From: an uncultured Solirubrobacterales bacterium
Lineage (GTDB): Bacteria; Actinomycetota; Thermoleophilia; Solirubrobacterales; JBBDJG01
Assembly (NCBI GenBank): GCA_963785085.1
Contig: CAWAUD010000007.1
Location: 132,506 to 196,505 of the forward strand
Direction: 5' to 3'
Length of the DNA stretch: 64,000 bases
Positions within the stretch are counted from its first letter, which is position 1, and every line of letters starts with the position of its first letter. A program made the translations under genes and the position numbers. Positions 12,537-53,850 of the stretch are shown in pieces. The notes beneath the pieces are model-generated. The model was not told the origin of the DNA. It made no database searches and worked only from the letters and a program-made list of their open reading frames with translations.

Positions 12537-13235
12537 ATGCCCGACACGGCTGCACTGCTGCGTGGCGTTCCGCTATTCAATGAGCTGACAGAGCACGACC
12601 TGGAGCGGATCGCGCGTGTAGCCGTGCCGCGCAGCTATCCGGCCGGAACGGTGATCCTGCGCGAGGGCGACCCCGGGGACACGTGTTACGTCCTGCGCAG
12701 CGGGCGGGCACGCGTAACGCGCCAGCACGCGGACGGGCGCAGCATCACCCTCACGAACCTCGGGCCGGGCGAGATCTTCGGCGAGCTTGCGATGTTCGGC
12801 GGCGAGGTTCGCTCCGCGACGGTCGAAGCCGTGGACGAGGTGCGCGCCGTGGCCCTGCTCGCCGCCGACCTCAAGCGGCTGCTGAGCGAGCACCCCGAGA
12901 TCGCCGTGAAGCTGCTCGGCGCGCTCAGCGGCAGGCTGCGGGAGGCCAACGCCCGCATCTCGCGCCAGTCCTTCCAGAAGGTGTCGAGCCGGGTGGCGGG
13001 GGTCCTTGCGGAGCTGGCGGAGACCGGCGCCCCGCGGGACTCGAACGGCGCCGTGGCCCGATCCGACGACGTCGTCGTGCGATCCACCCAGGCGGACATC
13101 GCGCAGCTGGCCGGCACGTCGCGTGAGGCGGCGAGCCGCTTCCTGGCCACCCTGCAGCGGGCCGGCGTGGTCACGTGCAAACGCGGTCGGGTGATCGTCC
13201 ACGACCCGCCTGCGCTTCATCGCTACATCTACTAG
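12537..13235 (+). CDS. Crp/Fnr-family transcriptional regulator (cNMP-binding plus HTH)
   Basis: 'LRGVPLFNELTEHDLERIA..YPAGTVILREGDPGDTCYVLRSGRARV..GEIFGELAMF' cNMP domain. C-terminal HTH 'STQADIAQLAGTSREAASRFLATLQRAGVV'. Confidence 0.87.
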   Translation: MPDTAALLRGVPLFNELTEHDLERIARVAVPRSYPAGTVILREGDPGDTCYVLRSGRARVTRQHADGRSITLTNLGPGEIFGELAMFGGEVRSATVEAVDEVRAVALLAADLKRLLSEHPEIAVKLLGALSGRLREANARISRQSFQKVSSRVAGVLAELAETGAPRDSNGAVARSDDVVVRSTQADIAQLAGTSREAASRFLATLQRAGVVTCKRGRVIVHDPPALHRYIY

Positions 13236-13297
13236 CCTGGGGCCGGCGCCCCGCTCTAATATGCCGCCGGGCACCCCGCCCCGCCTCCTCCAACTAC

Positions 13298-13696
13298 GTG
13301 TACGTCCTCAACTTCTACTCGCCGGTCTTCGTGGACCAGCTCAAGCGCGGCCGCAAGACCGCGACGATCAGGCTGGGCGACAAGAGCGGGAAGTACCGCC
13401 GCGGCCAGCTGGTCTGGGTGACGGTCGGATACAGCCACGAGCCGCGCGAGAAGGTCTTCACCGCCGTCATCGACGACGTCGAGGTGAAGCGCGTGCGAGA
13501 GCTCTCGCCCCGCGACATCGAGCACGACAACCCGGAATTCCGCCGTGTGGAGGACACCGTCCACTTCCTGGGCCAGATCTACGGCCGTGAGGTGCAGCAC
13601 GAGGACCTCGTCACCGTGATCCGCTTCTCGCAGGTGATCGAGAGCACGCAGCACCATGGGCCGCCCGGCAACGGGCAGAGCCCGCGCCGACCCTAG
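13298..13696 (+). CDS. ASCH (PUA-like) domain protein
   Basis: Tail of ORF 13175..13696. 'YVLNFYSPVFVDQLKRGRKTATIRLGD' is a typical ASCH N-terminus. Start set at in-frame GTG 13298. Confidence 0.55.
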   Translation: MYVLNFYSPVFVDQLKRGRKTATIRLGDKSGKYRRGQLVWVTVGYSHEPREKVFTAVIDDVEVKRVRELSPRDIEHDNPEFRRVEDTVHFLGQIYGREVQHEDLVTVIRFSQVIESTQHHGPPGNGQSPRRP

Positions 13697-13723
13697 GCGG
13701 CAGACCGCAGACGGCAGACCGCA
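13696..13723 (+). repeat. Heptamer array GGCGGCA GACCGCA GACGGCA GACCGCA, starting on the last base of the ASCH stop codon
   Basis: Read directly from the sequence. Member of the (GNCGGCA)n family listed in the findings. Confidence 0.9.
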
Positions 13724-13757
13724 AAAACCCCGTCACCTCGGAGCACCCCTCTCAGTT

Positions 13758-13784
13758 TTGGCACTCTTGTTGCTAGAGTGCCAG
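13758..13784 (+). promoter_or_regulatory. CIRCE operator (HrcA binding site) upstream of groES
   Basis: TTGGCACTC-N9-GAGTGCCAG versus consensus TTAGCACTC-N9-GAGTGCTAA. It lies 93 nt upstream of the groES ATG. Confidence 0.8.
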
Positions 13785-13876
13785 GCGTAGGGCTGCGCCC
13801 CCGCATGCAGGGACTTGCCTCCTCGGGGACGCGCCCTAAGAACCCTTACGGAAGCTTCGTTTTCAGGAGGTAGCGC

Positions 13877-15825: not shown

Positions 15826-15881
15826 GTCGGCAGTCGGCATGGCAGTCGGCAGTCGGCAGACTCGGCAGACCGCAGACGGCA
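15826..15881 (+). repeat. Heptamer array (GTCGGCA)2 T GGCA (GTCGGCA)2 GACTCGGCA GACCGCA GACGGCA, starting immediately after the groEL TAA
   Basis: Read directly from the sequence. Longest intergenic member of the family. Confidence 0.92.
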
Positions 15882-15889
15882 GATTCGAG

Positions 15890-34293: not shown

Positions 34294-35631
<1,338 letters not shown>

Positions 35632-35643
35632 GCGGTGGAGTTC

Positions 35644-35678
35644 TGCGGTCTGCCGTCTCCGGTCTCCGGTCTCCGGTC
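35644..35678 (-). repeat. Heptamer array; on the minus strand it reads TAG-ACCGGA (GACCGGA)2 GACGGCA GACCGCA from the gdh stop codon
   Basis: Plus strand reads TGCGGTC TGCCGTC (TCCGGTC)3. It fills most of the 46-nt spacer between the convergent gltA and gdh genes. Confidence 0.9.
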
Positions 35679-37000
35679 TAGATATACCCGCGCGTTTGCG
35701 CTGCCTCGACCACCCGGTTGATTCCCACCTCGTAGGCCGCCTGGCGCATCGTGAGGTCGCGCTCGCGGGCCAGGGCGTCGACCTCGCGGAAGGCGCGGCG
35801 CATGATCGTGCCGAGCTTGTCGTTGATCTCGCGCTCCTCCCAGCGGAAGTGCTGCATGTTCTGCACCCACTCGAAGTAGGAGACGACCACGCCGCCGGCG
35901 TTCGCCATCACGTCGGGGATCACGTAGATCCCGCGCTCGTTCAGCATGTCGTCGGCGCCGGGCGTGGTCGGGCTGTTTGCGCCCTCGAGCAGCATCCGGC
36001 ACTGGAGCTTGTCGACGTTCCCCTCGTGGATCATTCCCCCCAGCGCGGCGGGCAGGAATACGTCGCAGGGGATCTCCATGAGCTCGTCGGCGCTGATGGC
36101 CTCGGTACCGGGGAACTCCGGCAGCCGCCCGCCCTCCTGGATGAACTCCGCCAGCTTGTTCGTGTCGATGCCGGCGTCGCTGCGGATCGCGCCGTGCTGG
36201 TCCGAGACGCCGATGATCGTGACGCCGAGCTGCTGCAGGATGCGCGCCGCCCAAGCTCCGACGTTGCCGAATCCCTGGACGACGGCGGTGCAGTCCGGAG
36301 GTGAGAGCCCGATCTTCGGAGCGGCCTCGCGGAACATGAACACGAGTCCCCGCCCGGTCGCCGACTCGCGCCCGTAGGAGCCTTCGAGGGAGATCGGCTT
36401 GCCGGTGACGATCGCCGGCGTGTTGCCGTTGAGGCGGCCGTACTCGTCCATCAGCCACGCCATCACCTGCGCGTTGGTGTTGACGTCGGGCGCCATGATG
36501 TCGCGGTTCGGCCCGAGGATCTTGTGGATCTTGCTCATGAAGGAGCGGGTGATCTTCTGCAGCTCGTCCTTGCCGATCTTGTCGCCCGGGCAGTCGACAC
36601 CGCCCTTCGCGCCGCCGTAGGGGATACCGACGATCGCGGTCTTCCAGGTCATCAGCATCGCGAGCGCCCGCACGGAGTCCAGGTCGACCTCCGGGTGGTA
36701 GCGCAGGCCACCCTTGTATGGACCGCGCGCGCCGTTGTGCTGCACGCGGTACCCGGAGAAGACGTGGATCTTCCCGTCCGGGAACCGGACCGGGATCTGC
36801 ACGCGGATCTCGCGATAGGAGGTGCGGAGAACCTCGCGCACGTCGTCGGGAATGCCGCCCCGCTCGCAGACGTCGTCGAAGTAGTGCTGGACGATCTCGA
36901 TGTCCGAGACCGCCGAGCGGCCCCCTGCGCCGTTGGCGGCTGCCGCCGCGGCCGGGGCCTCGCCGCCGCCCACGCGCTGTCCTGTCCTCAGCTCCGCCAC
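35678..37000 (-). CDS. gdhA: NAD(P)-specific glutamate dehydrogenase
   Basis: 'GYRVQHNGARGPYKGGLRYHP', 'KTAIVGIPYGGAKGGV', 'VVQGFGNVGAWAA'. ORF 35678..37252 runs over the tRNA, so the start is set at GTG 37000, preceded by GGGAGG. Confidence 0.9.
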   Translation of the reverse strand: MAELRTGQRVGGGEAPAAAAAANGAGGRSAVSDIEIVQHYFDDVCERGGIPDDVREVLRTSYREIRVQIPVRFPDGKIHVFSGYRVQHNGARGPYKGGLRYHPEVDLDSVRALAMLMTWKTAIVGIPYGGAKGGVDCPGDKIGKDELQKITRSFMSKIHKILGPNRDIMAPDVNTNAQVMAWLMDEYGRLNGNTPAIVTGKPISLEGSYGRESATGRGLVFMFREAAPKIGLSPPDCTAVVQGFGNVGAWAARILQQLGVTIIGVSDQHGAIRSDAGIDTNKLAEFIQEGGRLPEFPGTEAISADELMEIPCDVFLPAALGGMIHEGNVDKLQCRMLLEGANSPTTPGADDMLNERGIYVIPDVMANAGGVVVSYFEWVQNMQHFRWEEREINDKLGTIMRRAFREVDALARERDLTMRQAAYEVGINRVVEAAQTRGYI

Positions 37001-42922: not shown

Positions 42923-44582
42923 TTGGGCCGCTTCTCCCCCAGTAACCTCGCGACGCGAAGGCTGCAGCCGCTCCAGCGGTCAGTCGTGGTCGACGGAGCG
43001 ACCATCGCTCTGGCGGCGGGTGCCGTCTACGGGCTCCTCGTCGATCGCGCTGTCGCCGCGGTCGCGCAGGATCCCGGACCGCTAGCGGTCGCCCCCTGCG
43101 TCGCCGCCATCGCGATGCTCGCCTTTTGCGGCTGGATCGCCGCACTCACCGGCCGGCGTCCCGACGGAGGCATCTCGCTGGCGCTGACCGGCCTTGCGGT
43201 CGCCACGTTGGCCTCGACCTACGCGGCCCTGCTGGGCGCGCAGGGCAAGCCCGGTGCCGCGGTGGGGCTCGCCGGCGGCTGGCTCGTCGCAGCCGTGCTC
43301 GTCTGCGCGGGCGCATCGCTTCCCGCGGAAGCTCACCCAGCCTCGCTGGACGGCGCCAAGCGCCTCAGGTCGACTTCGTTCGCAGCCGGCGTGTCGCTCG
43401 CGGTGATGGCCGCCGCCGGGGCGATTCCGGTCGATGCGGCCTGCGTGGTCGCAGCCGCAGCCGCCGTCGTGACGGTCATCGTCCGCGCTCGTCTCTCCTA
43501 CGCGGAGAACGTCGACAGCTACATGCAGGCCCGGCACGAAGCCCAGACCGACGCGCTCACCGGGCTCGGCAACAGGCGGAAGCTGATGACCGACCTCCAG
43601 CACGAGCTGCGCGGAGCGACGACGCGGTCTCCCCGCGTGCTGGCGCTCTTCGACCTCGACGGGTTCAAGCGCTACAACGACACCTTCGGGCATCCGGCCG
43701 GTGACACGCTGCTGATCCGCCTCGGAGCCAACCTCGGCCGCGCCATCGGCCCGTATGGCAGCGGCTATCGCCTCGGCGGCGACGAGTTCTGCGTGCTCGT
43801 GACCCGTGGCGGCGCCTCCGCCAAGACGGTGATCGGCCTGGCCGCCGCAGCGCTGTCCGACCATGGCGGCGGATTCGCGGTGAAGGCCTCGCACGGCGCC
43901 GTGATGCTTCCGCACGAGGCTCGGGATGCGGCCGGCGCGATCCTGGTCGCGGACCAGCGCATGTACGCGCACAAGGAGAGCCGTCGCGCCTCGGCCACGC
44001 GCCAGACCCGCGACATCCTCCTGCAGGTGCTGAGCGAGCGCGCACCCGACCTCGGCGCCCACATCAAGGAGGTCGCGATGATGGCGCGCGGAGTCGGAAC
44101 ACGCCTGGCGCTCGAGTCGCGAGGAGCTGGACGAGGTCGTCCGCGCGGCGGAGCTGCACGACGTCGGCAAGATGGCGGTGCCCGACGAGGTGCTGAACAA
44201 GCCCGGCCCGCTGACCGACGAGGAATGGAACTTCATCCGCCAGCACACGATCGTCGGTGAGCGGATCCTGAGCGCCGCGCCGGCACTGACGCCGGTCGCC
44301 AAGCTCGTGCGCGCCAGCCACGAGCGCTGGGACGGCGCCGGCTACCCCGACGGGCTCGCCGGTGATGAGATTCCGCTCGGCGCCCGCATCGTTGCCGTCT
44401 GCGACGCGTTCCACGCGATGACCGCCGCACGTCCGTACCGGACGCCGCTTCCCGTCGATGAGGCGATCGGGGAGCTACAGCGCAACGCAGGCGTCCAGTT
44501 CGACCCCGAAGTCGTGAAGGCCTTCGTCGACGAGCTGTCGGCAATGGCGGTGCGCACCCGCGCCGCCGCCGCGGCCCGGTAG
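42923..44582 (+). pseudogene. Membrane-anchored GGDEF (diguanylate cyclase) plus HD-GYP protein; frame break near 44118
   Basis: About 6 TM segments. 'DALTGLGNRRKL..LFDLDGFKRYNDTFGHPAGD..YRLGGDEFCVL'. Then (frame 44172) 'AAELHDVGKMAVPD...HTIVGERIL...HERWDGAGYPDGL'. Confidence 0.82.
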
Positions 44583-44583
44583 G

Positions 44584-44618
44584 CCACCGCCTACCGCCTG
44601 CCGCCTACCGCCTACCTA
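44584..44618 (-). repeat. Variant heptamer array; minus strand reads TAG-GTA GGCGGTA GGCGGCA GGCGGTA GGCGGTG from the carboxypeptidase stop
   Basis: It fills the whole 33-nt spacer between the two convergent stop codons (TAG 44580-44582 and CTA 44616-44618). Confidence 0.85.
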
Positions 44619-46542: not shown

Positions 46543-47563
46543 TTACTTCAGGGTGCGACGTAGGGAGCTCGCGACCGAGGAGCGCCAGGCACAGGCAGCG
46601 GCGAAGCCGCCGATATTCCCCAGACGCTGCGCGGACCGGTACCTGTTCGTCGGCGTGATACGAGCTGCGCACGAGCGCACCGGAGGCGACGGACTCGAAG
46701 CCCATGGCGTAGGCGGCCCGCTCGATCTCGGCGAACTCACCGGGCTCCCAGTAGCGGACCACCGGAAGGTGGTCGCGGGACGGCCGCAGATACTGCCCCA
46801 CCGTGAGAACCTGGACTTCGTGCTCGCGCAGGCGCTCCAGCGCGGCCAAGAGCTCGTCCATCGTCTCGCCGAGGCCGACCATCAGCCCCGATTTGGTTAT
46901 GACCTCGCTGTCCATCCCGCGGGCGTTCAGCAGGACCCGGCACGAGCGCAGGAAGTCCGAGCCGCGGCGCGCCAGCGGGTACAGTCGCGGCACGGTCTCG
47001 ACGTTGTGGTTGAAGACGTCCGGCCGCGCGTCGATCACGCGCGCCAGCGGCATCTCCTGGCCGCGGAAGTCGGGAGTCAACACCTCGACGGCGCAGGCGG
47101 GCGCCCGGTGGCGGATCGCACGGATCGTGTGGACGAAGGCGCCCGCGCCGTAGTCCGGCAGGTCGTCGCGGTCGACCGACGTCACGACGCAGTGCCGCAG
47201 GCCCATCTGCTTGACGGCATTGGCGACCCGCAGGGGCTCGGCGCGGTCCACCAGGCTCGGCACGCCCGACTTGACGTTGCAGAAGCCGCAGCGGCGCGTG
47301 CACACGTCCCCGAGGATCATGAACGTCGCGGTGCCGCGCTCCCAGCACTCACCGATGTTCGGGCAGTTGGCCTCCTCGCAGACCGTGTGGAGACCCTGGC
47401 TCCGCATCAGGTGCTTGAGGTTGCGATACACGGGGCCGCCGGGCGCCTTCACCTTCAGCCAGGGCGGCTTGCGCTCGCGGAAGTCGAGCGTTCCGCTGCC
47501 ATCGCCGCTCGAGCCGCCGGGGCGCGCACGCGAGCGCGTCACGTGTGACGTGGGAGCACTCAT
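46543..47563 (-). CDS. lipA: Lipoyl synthase; 3' end frame ambiguous (see findings)
   Basis: 'CEEANCPNIGECW', 'ILGDVCTRRCGFCNV' (radical-SAM CxxxCxxC), 'VRSSYHADEQ'. ATG 47563 is preceded by GGAGG. As read, the ORF runs on to 46346 across the rhomboid gene. The +1 frame stops at 46543. Confidence 0.88.
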
Positions 47564-48249
47564 GCGACCTCCGCCACCAGCCCCAGCTGCTCCGTCGGGA
47601 CCTCGACAAGCCGCCGCCCGAGCGCGTCCGCCAGCTCGCCGGCCGCTACCTGCGCGAACGGACCGACCTCCTGCATCGCACGCTTCTCGCGAGTCACCGA
47701 AGTAACGCGGCAATGCTCGATCCCGCAGGGAACGATCCACTCGAACGGCTGGAGGTCGTTGGAGACGTTGACGGCGAACCCGTGGGTCGTGATTCCGCGG
47801 CTGACGTGGATGCCGATCGAGCCGATCTTGCGCGGCTCCGGCGTCCACACGCCGGTCAGTCCCTCACGCGTGCCGGCCTCGACCCCGAAGCGGCCAAGCG
47901 CTGCCACCAGCGCCGACTCGAGCAGGCGCACATAGCGGTGCACGTCGTCGCGAAGAGGCCGCAGGCTGACGATCGGGTAGCCGACCAGCTGGCCCGGACC
48001 GTGGTAGGTCACCCGGCCGCCCCTGTCGGTCTCCCAGACCTCGATGCCCTGGGCGCGGTACCACTCCTCCCCCATCGGCAGCTCCGAGTCGTCCGAGCGA
48101 CGCCCGCGCGTGTAGGTGGGCGGGTGCTCCAGGCTGATCAGCACATCGGGGATGCGGCCGTCCTGCCGCGCGGCGTGCAGCTGCCGCTGAAGCGCGAGCG
48201 CCTCGCCGTACGGAACCTGGCCCAGCGCGCAGTGCCAGAGATCGGACAT
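47560..48249 (-). CDS. lipB: Lipoyl(octanoyl) transferase
   Basis: 'LISLEHPPTYTRGRR', 'TDRGGRVTYHGPGQLVGYPI', 'RKIGSIGIHVSRGITTHGFAVNV'. Confidence 0.9.
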   Translation of the reverse strand: MSDLWHCALGQVPYGEALALQRQLHAARQDGRIPDVLISLEHPPTYTRGRRSDDSELPMGEEWYRAQGIEVWETDRGGRVTYHGPGQLVGYPIVSLRPLRDDVHRYVRLLESALVAALGRFGVEAGTREGLTGVWTPEPRKIGSIGIHVSRGITTHGFAVNVSNDLQPFEWIVPCGIEHCRVTSVTREKRAMQEVGPFAQVAAGELADALGRRLVEVPTEQLGLVAEVA

Positions 48250-48978
48250 CCCGGAAGCCTAGAGCGCCATCGACAACGGCTGCTCGAGCAGCGTCCGGAC
48301 GCGGGCAAGGAACTGCGCGCCGTCGGCGCCGTAGAGAATCCGGTGGTCGCAGGCCAGCGTCACGCCCATCATCGGGCGGGCGACCACGCGGCCCGAATCG
48401 TCCACGACCGCCTTCTGCTGCAGCGCTCCGACCGATAGCAGGGCCGCCTGCGGAGGATTGATCACAGCGGAGAAGTTCGTGACGCCGTACATCCCGAGGT
48501 TCGACACCGTGAAGGTCCCCCCCGAGAGCTCCGGAGGCGTGACGGTCCCTTCGCGCACCTTGTTCGCGAGCTCGCGCGCAACGACGGCGATCTCGCCCAG
48601 CGACCTGCGGTCGGCATCGAAAATCGTGGGCACGACGAGCGCGTCGCGCGCCGCGACCGCGACCCCGACGTTGACGCGGGAGTACAGCTCGAAGTGGCCG
48701 TCGCGGTAGGAGCCGTTGGCACGGGGGAACTCCCGTAACGCGATCGCGCAGGCCTTCACCACCATGTCGTTGTAGGTCGGAGCGGGCCGCTCGTCGCCGG
48801 CGATCTTCTTCAGCTGCGAGCGCACGGCGACCGCTTCCGCCATGGCGATCTCGGTCTCCAGATAGAAGTGCGGGACGGTCGCTTTTGACTCGGCCATCCG
48901 CCGAGAGACCGTGGCCTGGAGGCGGGAAAGCTCAACAACCTGGACTTCGCCCTTGGCGCTTTCGGGTCCCGGTGGGGA

Positions 48979-49006
48979 GTCGGCAGTCGGCAGTCGGGAG
49001 TCGGCA
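48979..49006 (+). repeat. Heptamer array GTCGGCA GTCGGCA GTCGGGA GTCGGCA inside E2 linker 2, antisense to the gene
   Basis: Read directly from the sequence. Encodes 'SADSRLPTADSP' in the E2 frame. Confidence 0.9.
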
Positions 49007-49176
49007 GATTTTGCCGGCTGCGCCGTTTGAGCCGCCTGACCGGCGGCCGCTTCGACATCGGCTTTGACGATTCGCCCGCCCGGGCCGGTTCCACGTAGCG
49101 ACTCGAGCTGCACTCGCAATTCGCGCGCCATCCGGCGGGCAACGGGCGAAGCCTTGACACGCCCATCGGGCACGTC

Positions 49177-49250
49177 TGCCGTCTGCGGTCTGCGGTCTGC
49201 GGTCTTTTCTGCCGACTGCCGACTGCCGACTGCCGACTCTTTCTGCCGCC
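49177..49250 (-). repeat. Heptamer arrays inside E2 linker 1, in gene sense: GGCGGCA GAAAGA (GTCGGCA)4 GAAAA (GACCGCA)3 GACGGCA
   Basis: Read directly from the sequence. Both overlapping ORF frames translate it to the same cyclic peptides (VGSRQSA.., DRRPQTA..). Confidence 0.9.
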
Positions 49251-49544
49251 TCTTCCTTCGCGGGCGCTTCATCCTGCTGCGGCGCTGCTCCATTCATCTC
49301 ATCAGAGCTACCGATCCGCGCAATGACCTCGCCAATCGGCAGCGTGTCGCCCTCGGCCGCCACTACTTCCACGAGGACGCCGTCGTCGAGGGACTCGTAG
49401 GTCATGTTCGCCTTGTCCGTCTCGATCTCGACCAGCTCGTCGCCGCGGTGCACCTCCTCGCCGACCGACTTCAGCCAGCGCAGAATGGTGCCCTCCTCCA
49501 TCGAGTCCGACAGCCGCGGCATCGCGACGTCGAGCGGCCATCGG

Positions 49545-50529
49545 CTACACGTCCCGGATCGTCGCCAGCGCCGCCTTCACGACGTGCTCCTCGTGCGGCA
49601 TCGCCGCCTGCTCCAGGGCCTTGTGTAAGGCATCGGCACGTCCGCCCCGGTCACGCGCTGCACCGGTGCGTCGAGCCAGTCGAATGCCTGCTCCTGGATC
49701 AGCGCCGCGAGGTTGGCGCCGACGCCGCCGTGCGGCCAGCCCTCTTCGACGATCACGCAGCGGTTGGTCTTCTTGACCGAGTCGGTGATCGTGTCGAGGT
49801 CGAGCGGCCGCAGCGTGCGCGGGATCGATCACCTCCGCATCCACGTGCTCGTCGGCCGCGAGCCGCTCCGCCGCGCGCTCGGCGATCACTGCCATGCGAG
49901 AGATCCCGACGATGGTGACGTCGTCCCCTTCGCGCCGGATCGCGGCCTCGCCGAAGCGCATCGGCTCGCAGATCGTCCGGGACCTCGCCCCGCTGGCCGT
50001 AGAGACACTCGTGCTCGATGAAGATGACCGGGTTGTCGTCCCGGATCGCGGCCTTCAGCAGGCCCTTCGCGTCGGCCGCCGTCGAGGGCGCGGCGACGAG
50101 CAGGCCGGGGACCTGGAGGAACATCGCCTCGAGAGTGTGCGAGTGGGTCGGCCCGAGCTGGTGGCCTCCGCCCTGCGGGAAGCGGATCACCAGCGGCACG
50201 CGTGCCTGCCCGCCGAACATGTAGTGGATGTGCGCCGCGGAGTTGATGATCTGGTCCATCGCCAGCAGCGCGAAGTTGACGGTCATGATCTCGACGATCG
50301 GCCGCAGTCCCGCCATCGCGGCGCCGACTCCCATGCCGACGATCGTGTTCTCCGATATCGGCGTGTCGCGCACCCGCTTCTCGCCGAACTCCTCGAGCAG
50401 TCCCTCGGTGACCTTGAAGGCGCCCTGGAAGACGCCCACGTCCTCCCCCATCAGGAAGACCGACTCGTCCGCCTGCATCTCCTCGCGCATGGCCTGGTTG
50501 AGCGCCTCGCGGTAGCGGATCGTGCTCAA
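49545..50529 (-). pseudogene. 2-oxo acid dehydrogenase E1 component beta subunit; at least 3 frame breaks
   Basis: 'STIRYREALNQAMREEMQADESVFLMGEDVG..RVRDTPISENTIVGMGVGAAMAGLRPIVEIM' (frame 49753..50529). 'MRFGEAAIRREGDDVTIVGISRMAV' and the C-terminus '..ATIRDV*' are in other frames. The TTG start overlaps the E1-alpha stop. Confidence 0.8.
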
Positions 50530-51812
50530 CCTTCGTCCTCCCGCTGCGCCGCGTCCGACGGACCCGGGCCGGAAGCACCGGCCGCCTCGTCGTCACGCCG
50601 GCGCCGCTGGACGTCGCCTGCACGGCGTGCGCCGCGCCCGCCTCCGCCAGCTCGTGTGCGGTTCCGGTCTGGCCGACCTGCCGCTCGTCCTCGCCGCGGT
50701 GGACCTCGGGCGTCCGCTCGTCGATCGAGTACCAGCCACGCACCTGGTCGCCGAGCACGTAGACGTTGTCGTAGAGGCATTCGAGCGGCGGATCGGGGCT
50801 CGACTCAGCGAACTCGACCGCCTCGTCGACCTCCGCAATCGCGCGGCGGTCACCGCTCCTCGACGCCCTCCTGGTCGATGTAACCCGCCTCGATCAGACG
50901 GCGCGCGAACGACTCGATCGGGTCGCGCTCGCGCCACTGCTGCGACTTCCTCCTTGGTGCGGTAGACCTCGGGGTCCGCGGCGGAGTGCCCGCGGAACCG
51001 GTAGGTGAGGCTCTCGACCAGGGTCGGACGCCTGTCCTCGCGCGCGAGGCGCAGGTGCTCCGCGACGCACTCGCGTACGGCGAGCACGTCCATTCCGTCG
51101 ACGCGCTCGCCGGGGACGCCGAGACACTCCGCCTTGCTCGAGAGATCCGTGACGGCCGAGTGCCGCGAGAGCGCCGTCCCCATGCCGTACTGGTTGTTGA
51201 CGACCAGGAAGACGACCGGCAGCTTCCAGAGCGCCGCGAGGTTCATCGTCTCGCCGAACGTCCCCTGGTTCGAGGCGCCGTCGCCGAACATGCAGACCGT
51301 CACCGAATCATCGCCTCGGTAGTCGGAGGCGAGCGCGAGCCCGGCGGCGATCGGGAGGTTGCCGCCGACGATGCCGTAGCCGCCCATGAAGCGCCGCTCC
51401 GGGTCGAACAGGTGCATCGAGCCGCCGCGTCCCTTCGAAACACCGGTCGGCCTTGCCGAACAGCTCCGCCATCACGAGCTTCGGGTCGGTCCCGCGGCCG
51501 ATCGCCTGGCCGTGCTCGCGGTACGTGGTGATCAGGTAGTCCTGGTCCTGGAGCACCGACGTGACGCCGAAGATCGTCGCCTCCTCGCCGATCGCCAGGT
51601 GCAGGAAGCCGCCGATCCTTGGCCTTCATGTACATCTCCTGGGCCCGCTCCTCGAAGTGGCGGATCAGCTGCATCTTGTGCAGGACGCCGAGCGCCGTCT
51701 CGCGATCGGGAAGCTCGCGCGCGTCTTTGCCCTTGCCGTCCGGAGCCGGGCCGTTGGCCGCCTGCCTGGACTTGCGCGCTTTCGTCTGTTGGCTGGCCTT
51801 ATCGCTCGCCAT
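50526..51812 (-). pseudogene. 2-oxo acid dehydrogenase E1 component alpha subunit (TPP-binding); at least 4 frame breaks
   Basis: 'LHKMQLIRHFEERAQEMY', 'DYLITTYREHGQAIGRG', '[28 protein letters not shown]', '[40 protein letters not shown]' and '[15 protein letters not shown]' lie in several frames. Confidence 0.8.
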
Positions 51813-51829
51813 GCGTCCTCGATCTCACA

Positions 51830-52409
51830 TTACCCGGTAGCAGCCGCCGCCTTCGCAGCCTCGGGGAGGCGATCGTCACCCCAAAAGAGCTGATCGCCCA
51901 CCGCGAGGGTGGGAACTCCTATGACCCCGCGCCCCGCGGCCTCCTCGGTGGCCACGCGCAGGGCGGTCCTTCACCGATTCGCTCTCGATCGCCCCGAGCA
52001 CCGCGCGTGGGTGCAGCTCGCAGGCGGCGGCCGCGATCATGACGTTGTCGAGGTCGCTCAGGTCCCGGCCGGCGTTGAACGCCTGCCTGAAGGCCGCCAG
52101 CGAGAACGAGACCGCCTTCCCGATCTGAGCCGCGTAGGTCGCGGCTCGCATGGCCGCGAGCATGTTCCCGGGCCACGGATCGGGCCAGCGCACCTGCGGC
52201 AACCCGTATTCGGCCGCCCGCCGCTCGACTTCCTCCATGCCGGAGTCCCGCCCGTCCGTCTCGCTCCAGGAACGCCGGCCATGGATCTTGAACAGCCCGC
52301 CGAGCAGCACCGGCTGCCAGACCGGCGGCGAGGGCAACAGGGAGTTGACCCGCTCGGCCGCCAGCCACGAATAGGGCGAGCCGAGATCGAAGTAAAAGAC
52401 AGTCGGCAG
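51830..52409 (-). pseudogene. DsbA-like 2-hydroxychromene-2-carboxylate isomerase family protein; frame break near 51955 and no canonical start codon
   Basis: 'VFYFDLGSPYSWLAAERV..PVWQPVLLGGLFK' opens the protein. The end 'LRVATEEAAGRGVIGVPTLAVGDQLFWGDDRL..*' is in another frame (stop 51830-51832). Upstream the frame is open through the heptamer arrays with only a CTG (52407-52409) as a possible start. Confidence 0.55.
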
Positions 52410-52476
52410 TCCGGAGTCGGCAGTCCGGAGACTGTCGTTCGAGGACTCTGCCGACTGCCGACTGCCGACTGCCGAC
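52402..52476. repeat. Inverted heptamer arrays: GTCGGCA GTCCGGA GTCGGCA GTCCGGA, a 19-nt spacer, then (TGCCGAC)4
   Basis: Read directly from the sequence. The right array ends 3 nt before the lpdA stop codon (52480-52482). Confidence 0.9.
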
Positions 52477-52479
52477 TCT

Positions 52480-53850
52480 TTAGGCGTGGATGACCCAACC
52501 AGCCGTGGCTCTACCCGCTTCCATCACCGCTTCTGAGAATGTCGGGTGCGGGTGCACCGTGCGAGCGATCTCCTCGAAGCCACCCTCGAGCTGCTTGGCG
52601 ACCACCAGCTCGGCGATCATCTCGGTCGCGCGAGCACCGACGATGCTGGCGCCGAGCAGCTCGCCGTAGCGAGCGTCACCGATCATCTTGACCATGCCCT
52701 TGCGGTCGCCGTAGACGGTCGCCGCGCCGACGCCGCCCATCGGGAACTTCCCGACCACGACATCGGCTCCGCGCTCCTTGGCCTGCGCCTCGGTGAGGCC
52801 GAAGCTCGCGACCTGGGGCGAGCAGAACGTGGCGCTGGGGATGTCGTCGTAGTTGAGCGGGTGCGTCTCGAGCCCAGCCGCGTCCTCGACGGCGATGATG
52901 CCCTCGTCCGAGGCCTTGTGCGCGAGCGCCGGCCCGTGGACCATGTCGCCGATCGCGTAGATGCCCTGGGCCGTCGTCCGCAGGCGCTCGTCGACCGCGA
53001 CTCGCCCGCGCTCGTCGAGCTGCACGCCGGCGGCCTCGAGGCCAAGTCCCTCCACGTCGGGGGCACGGCCCGCGCAGATGCAGAGGTAGTCGAACTCCTC
53101 GGTGTTCCCGTCCCAGATCAAGGAGACGGACTGCTTGCCGGCCTCCACCTTCTCCAGCGGCTTGCCGGTCGAGATCTTGATGTTCTGCCGCTTGAACTCG
53201 CCGGCGACAACCTTCGCGATCTCAGGATCCTCGGCCGGCAGGATCTGGTCCAGCGCCTCCATCAGGAGCACCTCGGTGCCGAAGCGGCCGAAGGCCGAGG
53301 CGATCTCGGCGCCGGACGCGCCCGCGCCGACGACCGCGAGCCGCGCCGGCTGCTCGTTCATCAGCCAGGCGCCGGCGGTGTCGATCACCCGGCCGCCGAA
53401 CTCCGCGCCGGGGACGGGCAGCGGCAGCGAGCCGGTGGCGAGCAGGATCTTTCCCGCGTCGACGGTGTCGTCGCCGACGGCCACGCTGCCCGCCCCGGCG
53501 ACGCGGCCCTCGCCGTGGAGCACCTCGATCTTGTGCTTCTTGAAGAGGCCCGCCACGCCCCCCGTGAGGGTCTTGACGACCTTGTCACGGTGCTTCGCGG
53601 CGCCCTCGATGTCGAACGACACGCCGTCTGCGGTGATGCCGAACTCGGCGCCGTCGCGCACCTCGGAGAGCACGTCCGCGGCGCGCAGCATCGCCTTTGC
53701 GGGGATGCAGGCCTCGTTCAGGCACCGTCCGCCGACGGTGTCCGCCCGCTCGACGACGGCGGTCTTCATCCCCAGCTGGGCGGCTCGAATCGCGGCCACG
53801 TAGCCGCCGGGGCCCGAGCCGATCACGACCATGTCGTACGAACCTGGCAC
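52480..53850 (-). CDS. lpdA: Dihydrolipoyl dehydrogenase (E3)
   Basis: 'VVIGSGPGGYVAAIRAAQLG', redox-active 'GGRCLNEACIPAK', 'VVGAGASGAEIA', C-terminal 'HPHPTFSEA'. Confidence 0.94.
   Translation of the reverse strand: MPGSYDMVVIGSGPGGYVAAIRAAQLGMKTAVVERADTVGGRCLNEACIPAKAMLRAADVLSEVRDGAEFGITADGVSFDIEGAAKHRDKVVKTLTGGVAGLFKKHKIEVLHGEGRVAGAGSVAVGDDTVDAGKILLATGSLPLPVPGAEFGGRVIDTAGAWLMNEQPARLAVVGAGASGAEIASAFGRFGTEVLLMEALDQILPAEDPEIAKVVAGEFKRQNIKISTGKPLEKVEAGKQSVSLIWDGNTEEFDYLCICAGRAPDVEGLGLEAAGVQLDERGRVAVDERLRTTAQGIYAIGDMVHGPALAHKASDEGIIAVEDAAGLETHPLNYDDIPSATFCSPQVASFGLTEAQAKERGADVVVGKFPMGGVGAATVYGDRKGMVKMIGDARYGELLGASIVGARATEMIAELVVAKQLEGGFEEIARTVHPHPTFSEAVMEAGRATAGWVIHA

Follow-up and report, generated by a model that had tools for sequence, protein, structure and literature searches.

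Heptanucleotide arrays encode both inter-domain linkers of a Solirubrobacterales pyruvate dehydrogenase E2 and are predicted to pair in its mRNA

Introduction

The 64,000-nucleotide stretch of DNA analysed here (contig CAWAUD010000007.1, positions 132,506 to 196,505; termed the window) comes from a soil actinobacterium of the Solirubrobacterales (Thermoleophilia) and contains a gene for the E2 subunit, dihydrolipoamide acetyltransferase, of a pyruvate dehydrogenase (PDH)-type complex that is both punctuated by tandem arrays of a 7-nucleotide (nt) unit and split between two reading frames. Non-triplet microsatellites are normally purged from essential genes, as a slip of one unit destroys the frame, and the locus thus raises the question of what such arrays are doing in the coding sequence of a central metabolic enzyme and whether they are responsible for its broken frame. 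The arrays, each of ~30 nt or ~4 units, encode the two inter-domain linkers of E2. The reading favored here, at a probability of roughly 0.7, is that of a normal E2 with translated heptamer linkers, in which inverted, co-evolving arms would form a stem and the frame break would be an error of a single A.

Heptamer arrays in the linkers of E2

The E2 gene occupies 48259-49541 of the window on the reverse strand, as assigned from the list of open reading frames (ORFs), Pfam matches, and intact homologues of 417-461 residues and 70-84% identity. In the window, the gene is represented by two ORFs, 48932-49522 and 48259-49293, rather than by one uninterrupted frame. The domain order from Pfam is lipoyl domain, peripheral subunit-binding domain (PSBD), and catalytic domain. 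The lipoyl domain matches PF00364 (E = 1e-17) and contains the segment VEIETDKANM with the ETDKA lipoyl-lysine motif, and the catalytic domain matches PF00198 (E = 8e-73) and contains CDHRILYGADG with the DHRxxDG motif; both segments are invariant in alignment A1. The PSBD, residues 120-155 of the repaired protein (PF02817, E = 1e-15), is flanked by the two linkers, and its coding segment (49036-49164, reverse strand, placed by PF02817 and alignment A1) lies between the arrays described below. Apart from the frame break, which is judged to be an error and not a feature, E2 is a normal PDH-type gene. Weak tblastn matches at ~40 kb, considered as a possible E2 paralogue, belong to an NHL/RTX-like repeat protein and are irrelevant to E2.

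Linker 1, which follows the lipoyl domain, is encoded in gene sense by GGCGGCA GAAAGA (GTCGGCA)4 GAAAA (GACCGCA)3 GACGGCA, in which (GTCGGCA)4 spans 49237-49210 and the second array spans 49204-49177. The flanking sequences are GAGGCGGCAGAAAGA, which precedes (GTCGGCA)4, and GACGTGCCCGATGGGCGTGTCAAG, which follows GACGGCA. Arm 1, GA(GTCGGCA)4GA (49208-49239, reverse strand), encodes ESAVGSRQSAE and constitutes the 5' arm of a predicted long-range stem. The second array of this linker (49177-49204, reverse strand) encodes (K)TADRRPQTAD and is not complementary to arm 1. Linker 2, which follows the PSBD, is encoded by AAATC, then TGCCGAC TCCCGAC TGCCGAC TGCCGAC (49006-48979), then TCCCCACCG. Arm 2, this array with TC on either side (48977-49008, reverse strand), encodes SADSRLPTADS. 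All three arrays are reported by Tandem Repeats Finder (TRF). An earlier interpretation made from the letters alone, the sequence-only reading, had proposed that both linkers are encoded, in inverted orientation, by a heptamer repeat that is also intergenic. The array coordinates and the TRF output agree with this proposal, and the same units are present at 13697-13723, 15826-15887, 35642-35680, and 52401-52479.

Because 7 and 3 share no factor, an array is read in all three phases and therefore yields a hydrophilic, stop-free, heptapeptide-periodic stretch, as in ESAVGSRQSAE, KTADRRPQTAD, and SADSRLPTADS. As the sequence-only reading had reasoned, both frames read cyclic permutations of VGSRQSA and DRRPQTA across the arrays. 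Peptides of this kind can serve as flexible linkers. In the alignment, DGRRQTA-like peptides comparable with the second array of linker 1 are found in homologues P0001-P0003.

The 14-mer GTCGGCAGTCGGCA occurs 16 times in the window when up to two mismatches are allowed, compared with 1.8 occurrences expected, and none of 100 shuffles attains this count. Across the 64 kb, near-perfect arrays number six with period 7 and none for each other period from 4 to 12, and three of the window's arrays lie inside the E2 linker-coding DNA.

Complementarity of the two arms

The two arms (49239-49208 and 49008-48977) are 32 nt each, match at 31 of 32 positions, and enclose a loop of 199 nt that includes the PSBD segment. 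Their complementarity, expressed as an ungapped inverted-repeat score against shuffles and control windows, stands at z = 17-22 relative to the shuffles. The stem is part of the minimum-free-energy RNA fold predicted for 48950-49300 (-179 kcal/mol, z = -5.6), and the transcript arms are thus predicted to form a stem of ~32 base pairs that closes the 199-nt loop. The sequence-only reading had anticipated this pairing and had named in silico folding of the mRNA as a check. The arm-arm stem is indeed held in the predicted fold, with dimensions that depart from the ~28-nt arms and ~170-nt loop it had given. RNAduplex runs on 90-nt segments produced whole-length pseudo-duplexes with uninformative z-scores and were dropped. 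A scan of 47500-53000 against Rfam 15 gave no family at the gathering score, only two sub-threshold chance matches.

The sole mismatch between the arms is a C.C opposition, which arises from TCC (Ser) where a perfect repeat would give TGC (Cys). The same TCC variant is present in the intact E2 relative L082, which comes from a different metagenome, is 88% identical, has an ORF of 431 residues with the same arrays, and is identical to the window throughout arm 2. The arrays are thereby confirmed independently of the window. Retention of the variant in L082 suggests protein-level selection on the translated array, with Ser kept in place of Cys at the mismatch. An invertible switch, in which recombination between the arms would flip the PSBD segment, was considered and rejected, as the inverted segment has stop codons in both the window and L082.

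The frame break and the indel-rich stretch

Between ATG 49522 and the stop at 48259, E2 covers 1264 nt, which is 1 mod 3, in agreement with the sequence-only reading. That reading had also placed the frame break inside an array and had noted that loss of one unit, gain of two units, or a 1-nt error would restore the ORF. The arithmetic is correct; the position and the involvement of unit number are not upheld. L082 reads the arrays as ESAVGSRQSAEKTADRRPQTADVPDGRV (also given as ...ESAVGSRQSAEKTADRRPQTADVPDGRVKASP), which is the downstream (PSBD) frame of the window, and the break must therefore precede both perfect arrays. It is assigned to the A-run AAA at 49240-49242 (reverse strand), at the 5' edge of the first array and outside the perfect repeats, where the module junction is GGCAGAAGAGTCGG in L082 and GGCAGAAAGAGTCGG in the window and the window appears to hold one A in excess. 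Removal of one A from this run gives a continuous ORF of 420 residues, and therefore a change in unit number is not needed. In L082 (262-392), arm 1 takes the form of three tandem 33-nt (11-codon) modules, each GAGTCGGCA(GTCGGCA)3GAA; the sequence of the (GTCGGCA)4 array is identical to that of the window, and the second linker-1 array is conserved with one difference. From this triplication, the linker grows by in-frame, higher-order units of the 7-nt repeat.

The window and locus L001, whose genes are intact, share the operon order lpdA, dsbA-like gene, E1a, E1b, E2, lipB, lipA, in which E2 is accompanied by genes for E1 alpha, E1 beta, E3, and lipoylation. In comparison with L001, frame switches are found in the dsbA-like gene, E1a (several), E1b (several), and E2, and none are found in lpdA or lipB. 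A nucleotide alignment across the dsbA-like gene, E1a, and E1b locates ~10 single-base indels at 49623-51967, eight of which are 1-nt insertions in the window. A plot of GC content at third codon positions (GC3) by phase displays long unbroken frames over most of the remaining window. Counted over 49241-51967, single-base indels number ~11, mostly 1-nt insertions, and the 3' part of E2 is clean. The one-A lesion resembles its ~10 neighbors in the adjoining 2.8 kb, which makes an assembly or sequencing error the likeliest origin; from these comparisons, the break is most probably one extra A at 49240-49242 and not repeat-number slippage.

A 35-nt direct repeat, AAAGAGTCGGCA(GTCGGCA)3GA, has one copy in E2 (49207-49241) and another just after lpdA (52446-52480). 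The indel-rich stretch starts exactly at the E2 copy and ends ~480 bp short of the lpdA copy, which would fit a segment that the assembler resolved or gap-filled with error-prone reads. Identical modules of 30-35 nt appear to disturb assembly, and annotators should not call such frame breaks pseudogenes.

The true start of E2 is probably ATG 49541-49539, as judged from the relatives. This ATG is one base out of frame with MPRLSD: the window reads M-A-A-(c)-D-V-A-M-P-R, compared with MA.DV.MPRLS in relatives. Because of the reading in relatives, a further 1-nt insertion near 49532, in GCT-C-GAC, is likely if ATG 49541 is the start.

Arrays in E2 orthologues

The loci surveyed derive from 80 GTDB genomes, 80 metagenome contigs, and L001, and comprise 162 E2 genes of Solirubrobacterales/Thermoleophilaceae in 1.89 Mb. 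Period-7 arrays are present at the same linker positions in 20 of the 162 orthologues, from several clades, and the comparison with related genomes that the sequence-only reading had called for therefore finds the repeat in their E2 linkers as well. TRF lists 34 period-7 rows in the linker-PSBD-linker region, which makes up 3.4% of the 1.89 Mb, versus 16 elsewhere (p ~1e-38), four of which immediately precede E2. Of the 192 TRF rows with another non-triplet period (8, 10, 11, or 13), 10 fall in linkers; among non-triplet periods, enrichment in linkers is confined to period 7.

Three array positions recur: 11-15 nt downstream of the lipoyl domain, immediately ahead of the PSBD, and immediately ahead of the catalytic domain. 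Array length is 3.9-4.6 units (~30 nt) in 19 of the 34. The units are lineage-specific and, in other lineages, are confined to E2 within the 13-21 kb loci examined. Since arrays occupy the same positions in distant relatives with differing units, the arrangement is old and E2-associated. The arm-1 peptides are also akin across clades (ESAVGSRQSAE, GSAVSRQASE, EASGVRPQASE, EATGDRPQATE, EEVAGGRSQ, and EEVSGAGSR; consensus E-S/A-V/T-G-x-R-x-Q-x-S/T-E), a resemblance that suggests that the arrangement arose early and that its unit has since turned over. The sequence-only reading had held that a genomic micro-repeat was recruited as, or had invaded, the linker. The linkers are built of the repeat as stated, and invasion is too simple an account of positions that distant relatives share.

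L001 has degenerate period-7 linkers with complementary arms of 22 nt. In L011, L012, L014, L089, and L016, arm 1 consists of (GGGNNNN)4 or of G5-tract repeats, a canonical sense-strand G-quadruplex motif; the window unit has only GG. Other linkers contain near-perfect, non-heptamer hairpins of 17-27 nt (L134 and L156, linker 2; L017; L067, L128, and L133; L122, linker 1), with apparent compensatory differences between related sequences. In linker 1 of L100, the reverse-complementary 12-nt sequences GGGTCTGACCCC and GGGGTCAGACCC each encode GSDP.

Co-variation and turnover of the arms

A best inverted repeat scoring at least 16 is found in 18 of the 162 linkers and in 4 of 584 control windows of the same size from the flanks (p = 2e-9), making such repeats ~16-fold commoner in linkers. 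At scores of 18 or more, long-range repeats (loop >30 nt) are present in 13 of 162 linkers versus 0 of 584 controls. The units of the two arms are complementary although they differ between lineages: GTCGGCA/TGCCGAC in the window and L082, GTCGCAG/CTGCGAC in L013, GTGTCGG/CCGACAC in L011, CCCGTTG/CAACGGG in L094, GCTCGTT/AACGAGC in L097, CGCTGGT/ACCAGCG in L096 and L020, and CGTTGAC/GTCAACG in L021. Arm 1 scores a mean of 17.8 against the 3' arm of its own or a sister lineage and 8.6 against those of other lineages, and composition alone therefore does not explain the arms. Accordingly, compositional complementarity between Gly/Arg and Pro/Ala codons was rejected as their cause: the arms pair within a lineage, and controls made of real sequence rarely score as high.

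Five genes of one clade can be aligned on a 25-bp helix in which 87% of cells are paired and nine pairs have changed on both sides, with the alignment register set from each sequence's own arms, a procedure that favors pairing. The covariation score is 0.38, compared with 0.15 for shuffled alignments (0 of 500 reach the observed score), and controls in which the arms were slid are 23-41% paired. Between the window and L082, codons are identical at 31 of 32 identical residues in the arrays versus 72 of 110 in the lipoyl domain and PSBD (p = 2e-4). Taken as sequence comparisons, these data establish that the arms co-evolve; they do not separate selection for a stem from hairpin-templated conversion.

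In one pair of sister lineages, arm 1 of L012 (GTCTCGG) is complementary to nothing in L012 and to the 3' array of linker 1 in L089 (CCCGAGA, score 26), where arm 1 is instead GCAGGGA. Each arm can therefore be lost or exchanged on its own.

Array copies outside E2

Five additional array sites are present in the window outside E2, and none are present in the 13-21 kb loci of other lineages. Arrays of the window begin 0-3 nt past the stops at 13696, 15825, 35678, 44582, and 52480. The element at 52385-52482 (reverse strand; sequence and RNA fold) directly follows the lpdA stop (52480-52482) and consists of the 35-nt module AAAGAGTCGGCA(GTCGGCA)3GA, a partly complementary array (52430-52401), and then UCUUUU, with the arrays together spanning 52401-52479; it folds as a heptamer-array hairpin (-52 kcal/mol, z = -5.3). 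On the forward strand, GTCGGCA units followed by GACCGCA/GACGGCA (15826-15887) begin at the first base past the groEL stop (15825) and are followed by a separate terminator hairpin. A GACCGCA/GACGGCA array (13697-13723, forward strand) begins at the first base past the stop of the ORF 13175-13696. Within 13697-13785, this array stands ~35 nt upstream of an inverted repeat resembling the controlling inverted repeat of chaperone expression (CIRCE), TTGGCACTC-N9-GAGTGCCAG, ahead of groES-groEL.

The remaining two sites are spacers between convergent stops. An array of GACCGGA/GACGGCA/GACCGCA (35642-35680, reverse strand) fills the spacer 35632-35677 between the stops at 35631 and 35678, and a CTACCGC array (44586-44616) fills the spacer 44583-44615 between those at 44582 and 44616. 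Both spacers are almost wholly heptamer arrays, with no obvious terminator hairpin.

Similar arrays are visible in the PDH operons of relatives. L001 has a GACNGCA array right after the lpdA stop. In L003 (9916-9974) and L007 (9909-9972), the E1b-E2 spacer is a heptamer-arm hairpin that starts 1-2 nt past the E1b stop, with units GTTCGCC/AACGGCG in L003 and TCGGCAG/ACTGCGA followed by a T-run in L007, the latter being the window's own unit. At every array with an assignable transcript, the sense strand is of the GCAG type. These shared post-stop hairpins indicate that the E2 linkers carry the same kind of element as the intergenic spacers of the operon.

Discussion

In the favored reading, the arrays would turn over by slippage, and their complementarity would be kept either by selection for an RNA stem or by hairpin-templated conversion of one arm by the other. 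Any function would most likely reside in the mRNA, as structure, stability, or pacing at domain boundaries, because the same modules form hairpins directly past stops in PDH operons. A wider and tentative proposal, to which we lend well under even weight, is that the arrays are a Thermoleophilia-wide dual-coding element, in which ~30 nt would serve at once as a flexible linker and as one arm of a selected long-range mRNA stem, and would belong to one post-transcriptional system together with the post-stop stems of PDH operons. Possible roles of such dual-coding stems include masking of C-rich Rho-loading tracts, ribosome pacing at domain boundaries, and control of RNase access.

Several observations weigh against the favored reading. 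L094 and L097 are 98% identical in nucleotide sequence over the catalytic domain and only 85-88% identical in the arms; a single compensatory unit change has come to occupy most copies in either arm, and the arrays are mosaic, a pattern that fits rapid concerted turnover as well as it fits selection. Arm mismatches show no excess of G.U over A.C (4 versus 8), and selection acting on the sense RNA is therefore not specifically indicated. Arm 1 lacks a complementary partner in L024, L109, L089, and L088. Period-7 arrays are detectable in only 20 of 162 orthologues and a strong inverted repeat in 24 of 162, from which the stem is not essential for E2. In addition, the reading of the frame break as an error rests on comparison with relatives. 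The patchy distribution, the rapid concerted turnover with mosaic arrays, the partnerless arms, and the absence of a G.U bias would all be compatible with a neutral by-product of mutational bias, in which slippage and template switching generate arrays that survive only in unconstrained spacers and linkers and quasipalindrome correction keeps them complementary; whole intergenic spacers filled by arrays would also be in keeping with this account. We regard it as possible, if doubtful, as the domain-boundary positions are conserved, array length is narrow (19 of 34 at 3.9-4.6 units), the density of period-7 arrays per nt in E2 linkers greatly exceeds that in the remainder of the loci, intergenic DNA included, the arrays of the window and L082 are more conserved than synonymous sites, and selection should remove a frameshift-prone repeat from an essential gene. 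Recent invasion of permissive E2 linkers in this lineage, through in-frame insertion of a dispersed intergenic repeat such as a repetitive extragenic palindrome (REP), a miniature inverted-repeat transposable element (MITE), or a relative of the Rickettsia palindromic elements (RPEs), is unlikely. The identical 35-nt module in E2 and right after lpdA speaks for invasion, as do the same units that follow groEL and another ORF, and in-frame insertion has a precedent in RPEs (PMC10969869). Set against these points, distant clades have arrays at the same positions with other units that are unseen elsewhere in their 13-21 kb loci, the arm-1 peptides are recognizably related across clades, and the arms lack terminal inverted repeats and target duplications and are split by the PSBD coding sequence of the host.

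The frame break itself invites other explanations. In a contingency locus, a slippage-prone array would break the frame through changes in unit number, switching E2 off or yielding a free lipoyl-domain protein. The non-triplet repeat within an ORF, the adjacency of the break to an array, and the fact that a change of -7 or +14 nt would mend the frame are all as such a locus would have them. Its probability is nonetheless slim: both perfect arrays are in the frame of L082, which places the break upstream of them; the length difference from L082 consists of whole in-frame modules of 33 nt; E2 is a gene of central metabolism rather than of the cell surface; the neighboring genes contain ten further 1-nt indels that are unlinked to repeats; and arrays of ~4 units are too short for the high slippage rates known from simple sequence repeats (SSRs). 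Real decay, with the dsbA-like gene, E1a, E1b, and E2 as true pseudogenes, could account for eleven or twelve frame breaks concentrated at 49241-51967, with lpdA, lipB, and most of the window left unbroken. Bacterial pseudogenes are biased towards deletions, whereas at eight of the 10 indels across dsbA-E1a-E1b the window has 1 nt inserted; the protein segments are 84-97% identical to those of the intact relative, without large deletions; and the start of the stretch exactly at a copy of the 35-nt repeat suggests an error-prone gap fill. Decay is accordingly quite improbable. A programmed +1 ribosomal frameshift at GAA-AGA before the stem would draw on the rarity of AGA in high-GC genomes and on a strong stem that starts immediately downstream. 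At GCA GAA AGA G there is no slippery motif for re-pairing, the closest relative, L082, is in-frame at this point, and similar indels run across the neighboring genes, which leaves programmed frameshifting barely credible.

In E2, 7-nt arrays recur across a bacterial order at fixed domain boundaries of a central metabolic enzyme with their arms staying complementary. If selection maintains the arms, they are a clear natural case of overlapping codes for protein and nucleic acid structure and would give an entry point to explaining the excess of heptamer repeats in many bacteria. If mutation alone maintains them, they illustrate cleanly how concerted evolution and hairpin-templated conversion can shape protein linkers.

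Comparison with known systems

In the literature, no report was found of heptamer repeats that encode E2 linkers or of such repeats in Thermoleophilia. Heptameric repeats are over-represented in bacteria, as described for the GGGAATC repeats of Xanthomonas and Nostoc, which prefer four units, lie near stop codons, are sometimes inverted, and are reported to be depleted in coding regions (Rehm et al. 2015, PMC4692102); TAACTGA heptamer repeats are described in Beggiatoaceae (PMC4679880). Similar to these heptameric SSRs and the cyanobacterial short tandemly repeated repetitive (STRR) sequences, the arrays described here are tandem 7-nt units with a period-7 excess and a preference for about four units, lie within a few bases of stops on the sense strand, and form occasional inverted pairs capable of making stem-loops. 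Unlike the coding-depleted SSRs, they are translated within an essential gene, and 34 of the 50 period-7 TRF rows in the 161 loci fall in E2 linker DNA. The window units have only GG and are not of the G3-tract (quadruplex-type) kind, whereas (GGGNNNN)4 is present in some relatives (L011, L012, L014, and L089).

RPEs are protein-coding palindromes that are translated as in-frame parts of housekeeping genes (Ogata et al. 2000, 2002, summarized in PMC10969869). The resemblance lies in a hairpin-forming repeat that is translated in a housekeeping protein at a spot tolerated by the fold and has copies outside genes. RPEs are discrete elements in sequence families of ~100-150 bp scattered over many genes, whereas the E2 elements are ~30-nt arrays of 7-nt units that are positionally conserved and co-evolving across an order, with their arms split by a host domain. 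The E2 arrays thus share in-frame translation and hairpin potential with palindromic elements but, with a 199-nt PSBD segment between the arms, have neither discrete ends nor the form of a single-piece insertion.

Phase-variable coding repeats, such as the CTCTT repeats of Neisseria opa genes, likewise have a non-triplet unit within an ORF, in which a one-unit change shifts the frame. The E2 arrays differ in being short and in lying in a central metabolic gene; no evidence of switching was found, and the window and L082 differ by in-frame 33-nt modules rather than by unit-number differences that switch the frame. Borg proteins reportedly contain rapidly evolving nucleotide tandem repeats within ORFs that create intrinsically disordered regions, and the units of these repeats are said to be multiples of three and to be arranged as direct repeats. 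The E2 unit, in contrast, is 7 nt, and its arrays are arranged as inverted complementary arms.

The E2 chains of 2-oxoacid dehydrogenases have flexible linkers rich in Ala and Pro, and the more distant homologues in alignment A1 have ordinary P/E/A/K linkers. The array-encoded linkers are like these in position, in their ~30-50 residues, and in being hydrophilic, of low complexity, and variable in length between domains. They differ in composition, which is rich in Ser, Arg, Gln, Gly, Asp, and Thr and follows from the reading of a non-triplet DNA repeat in all three phases.

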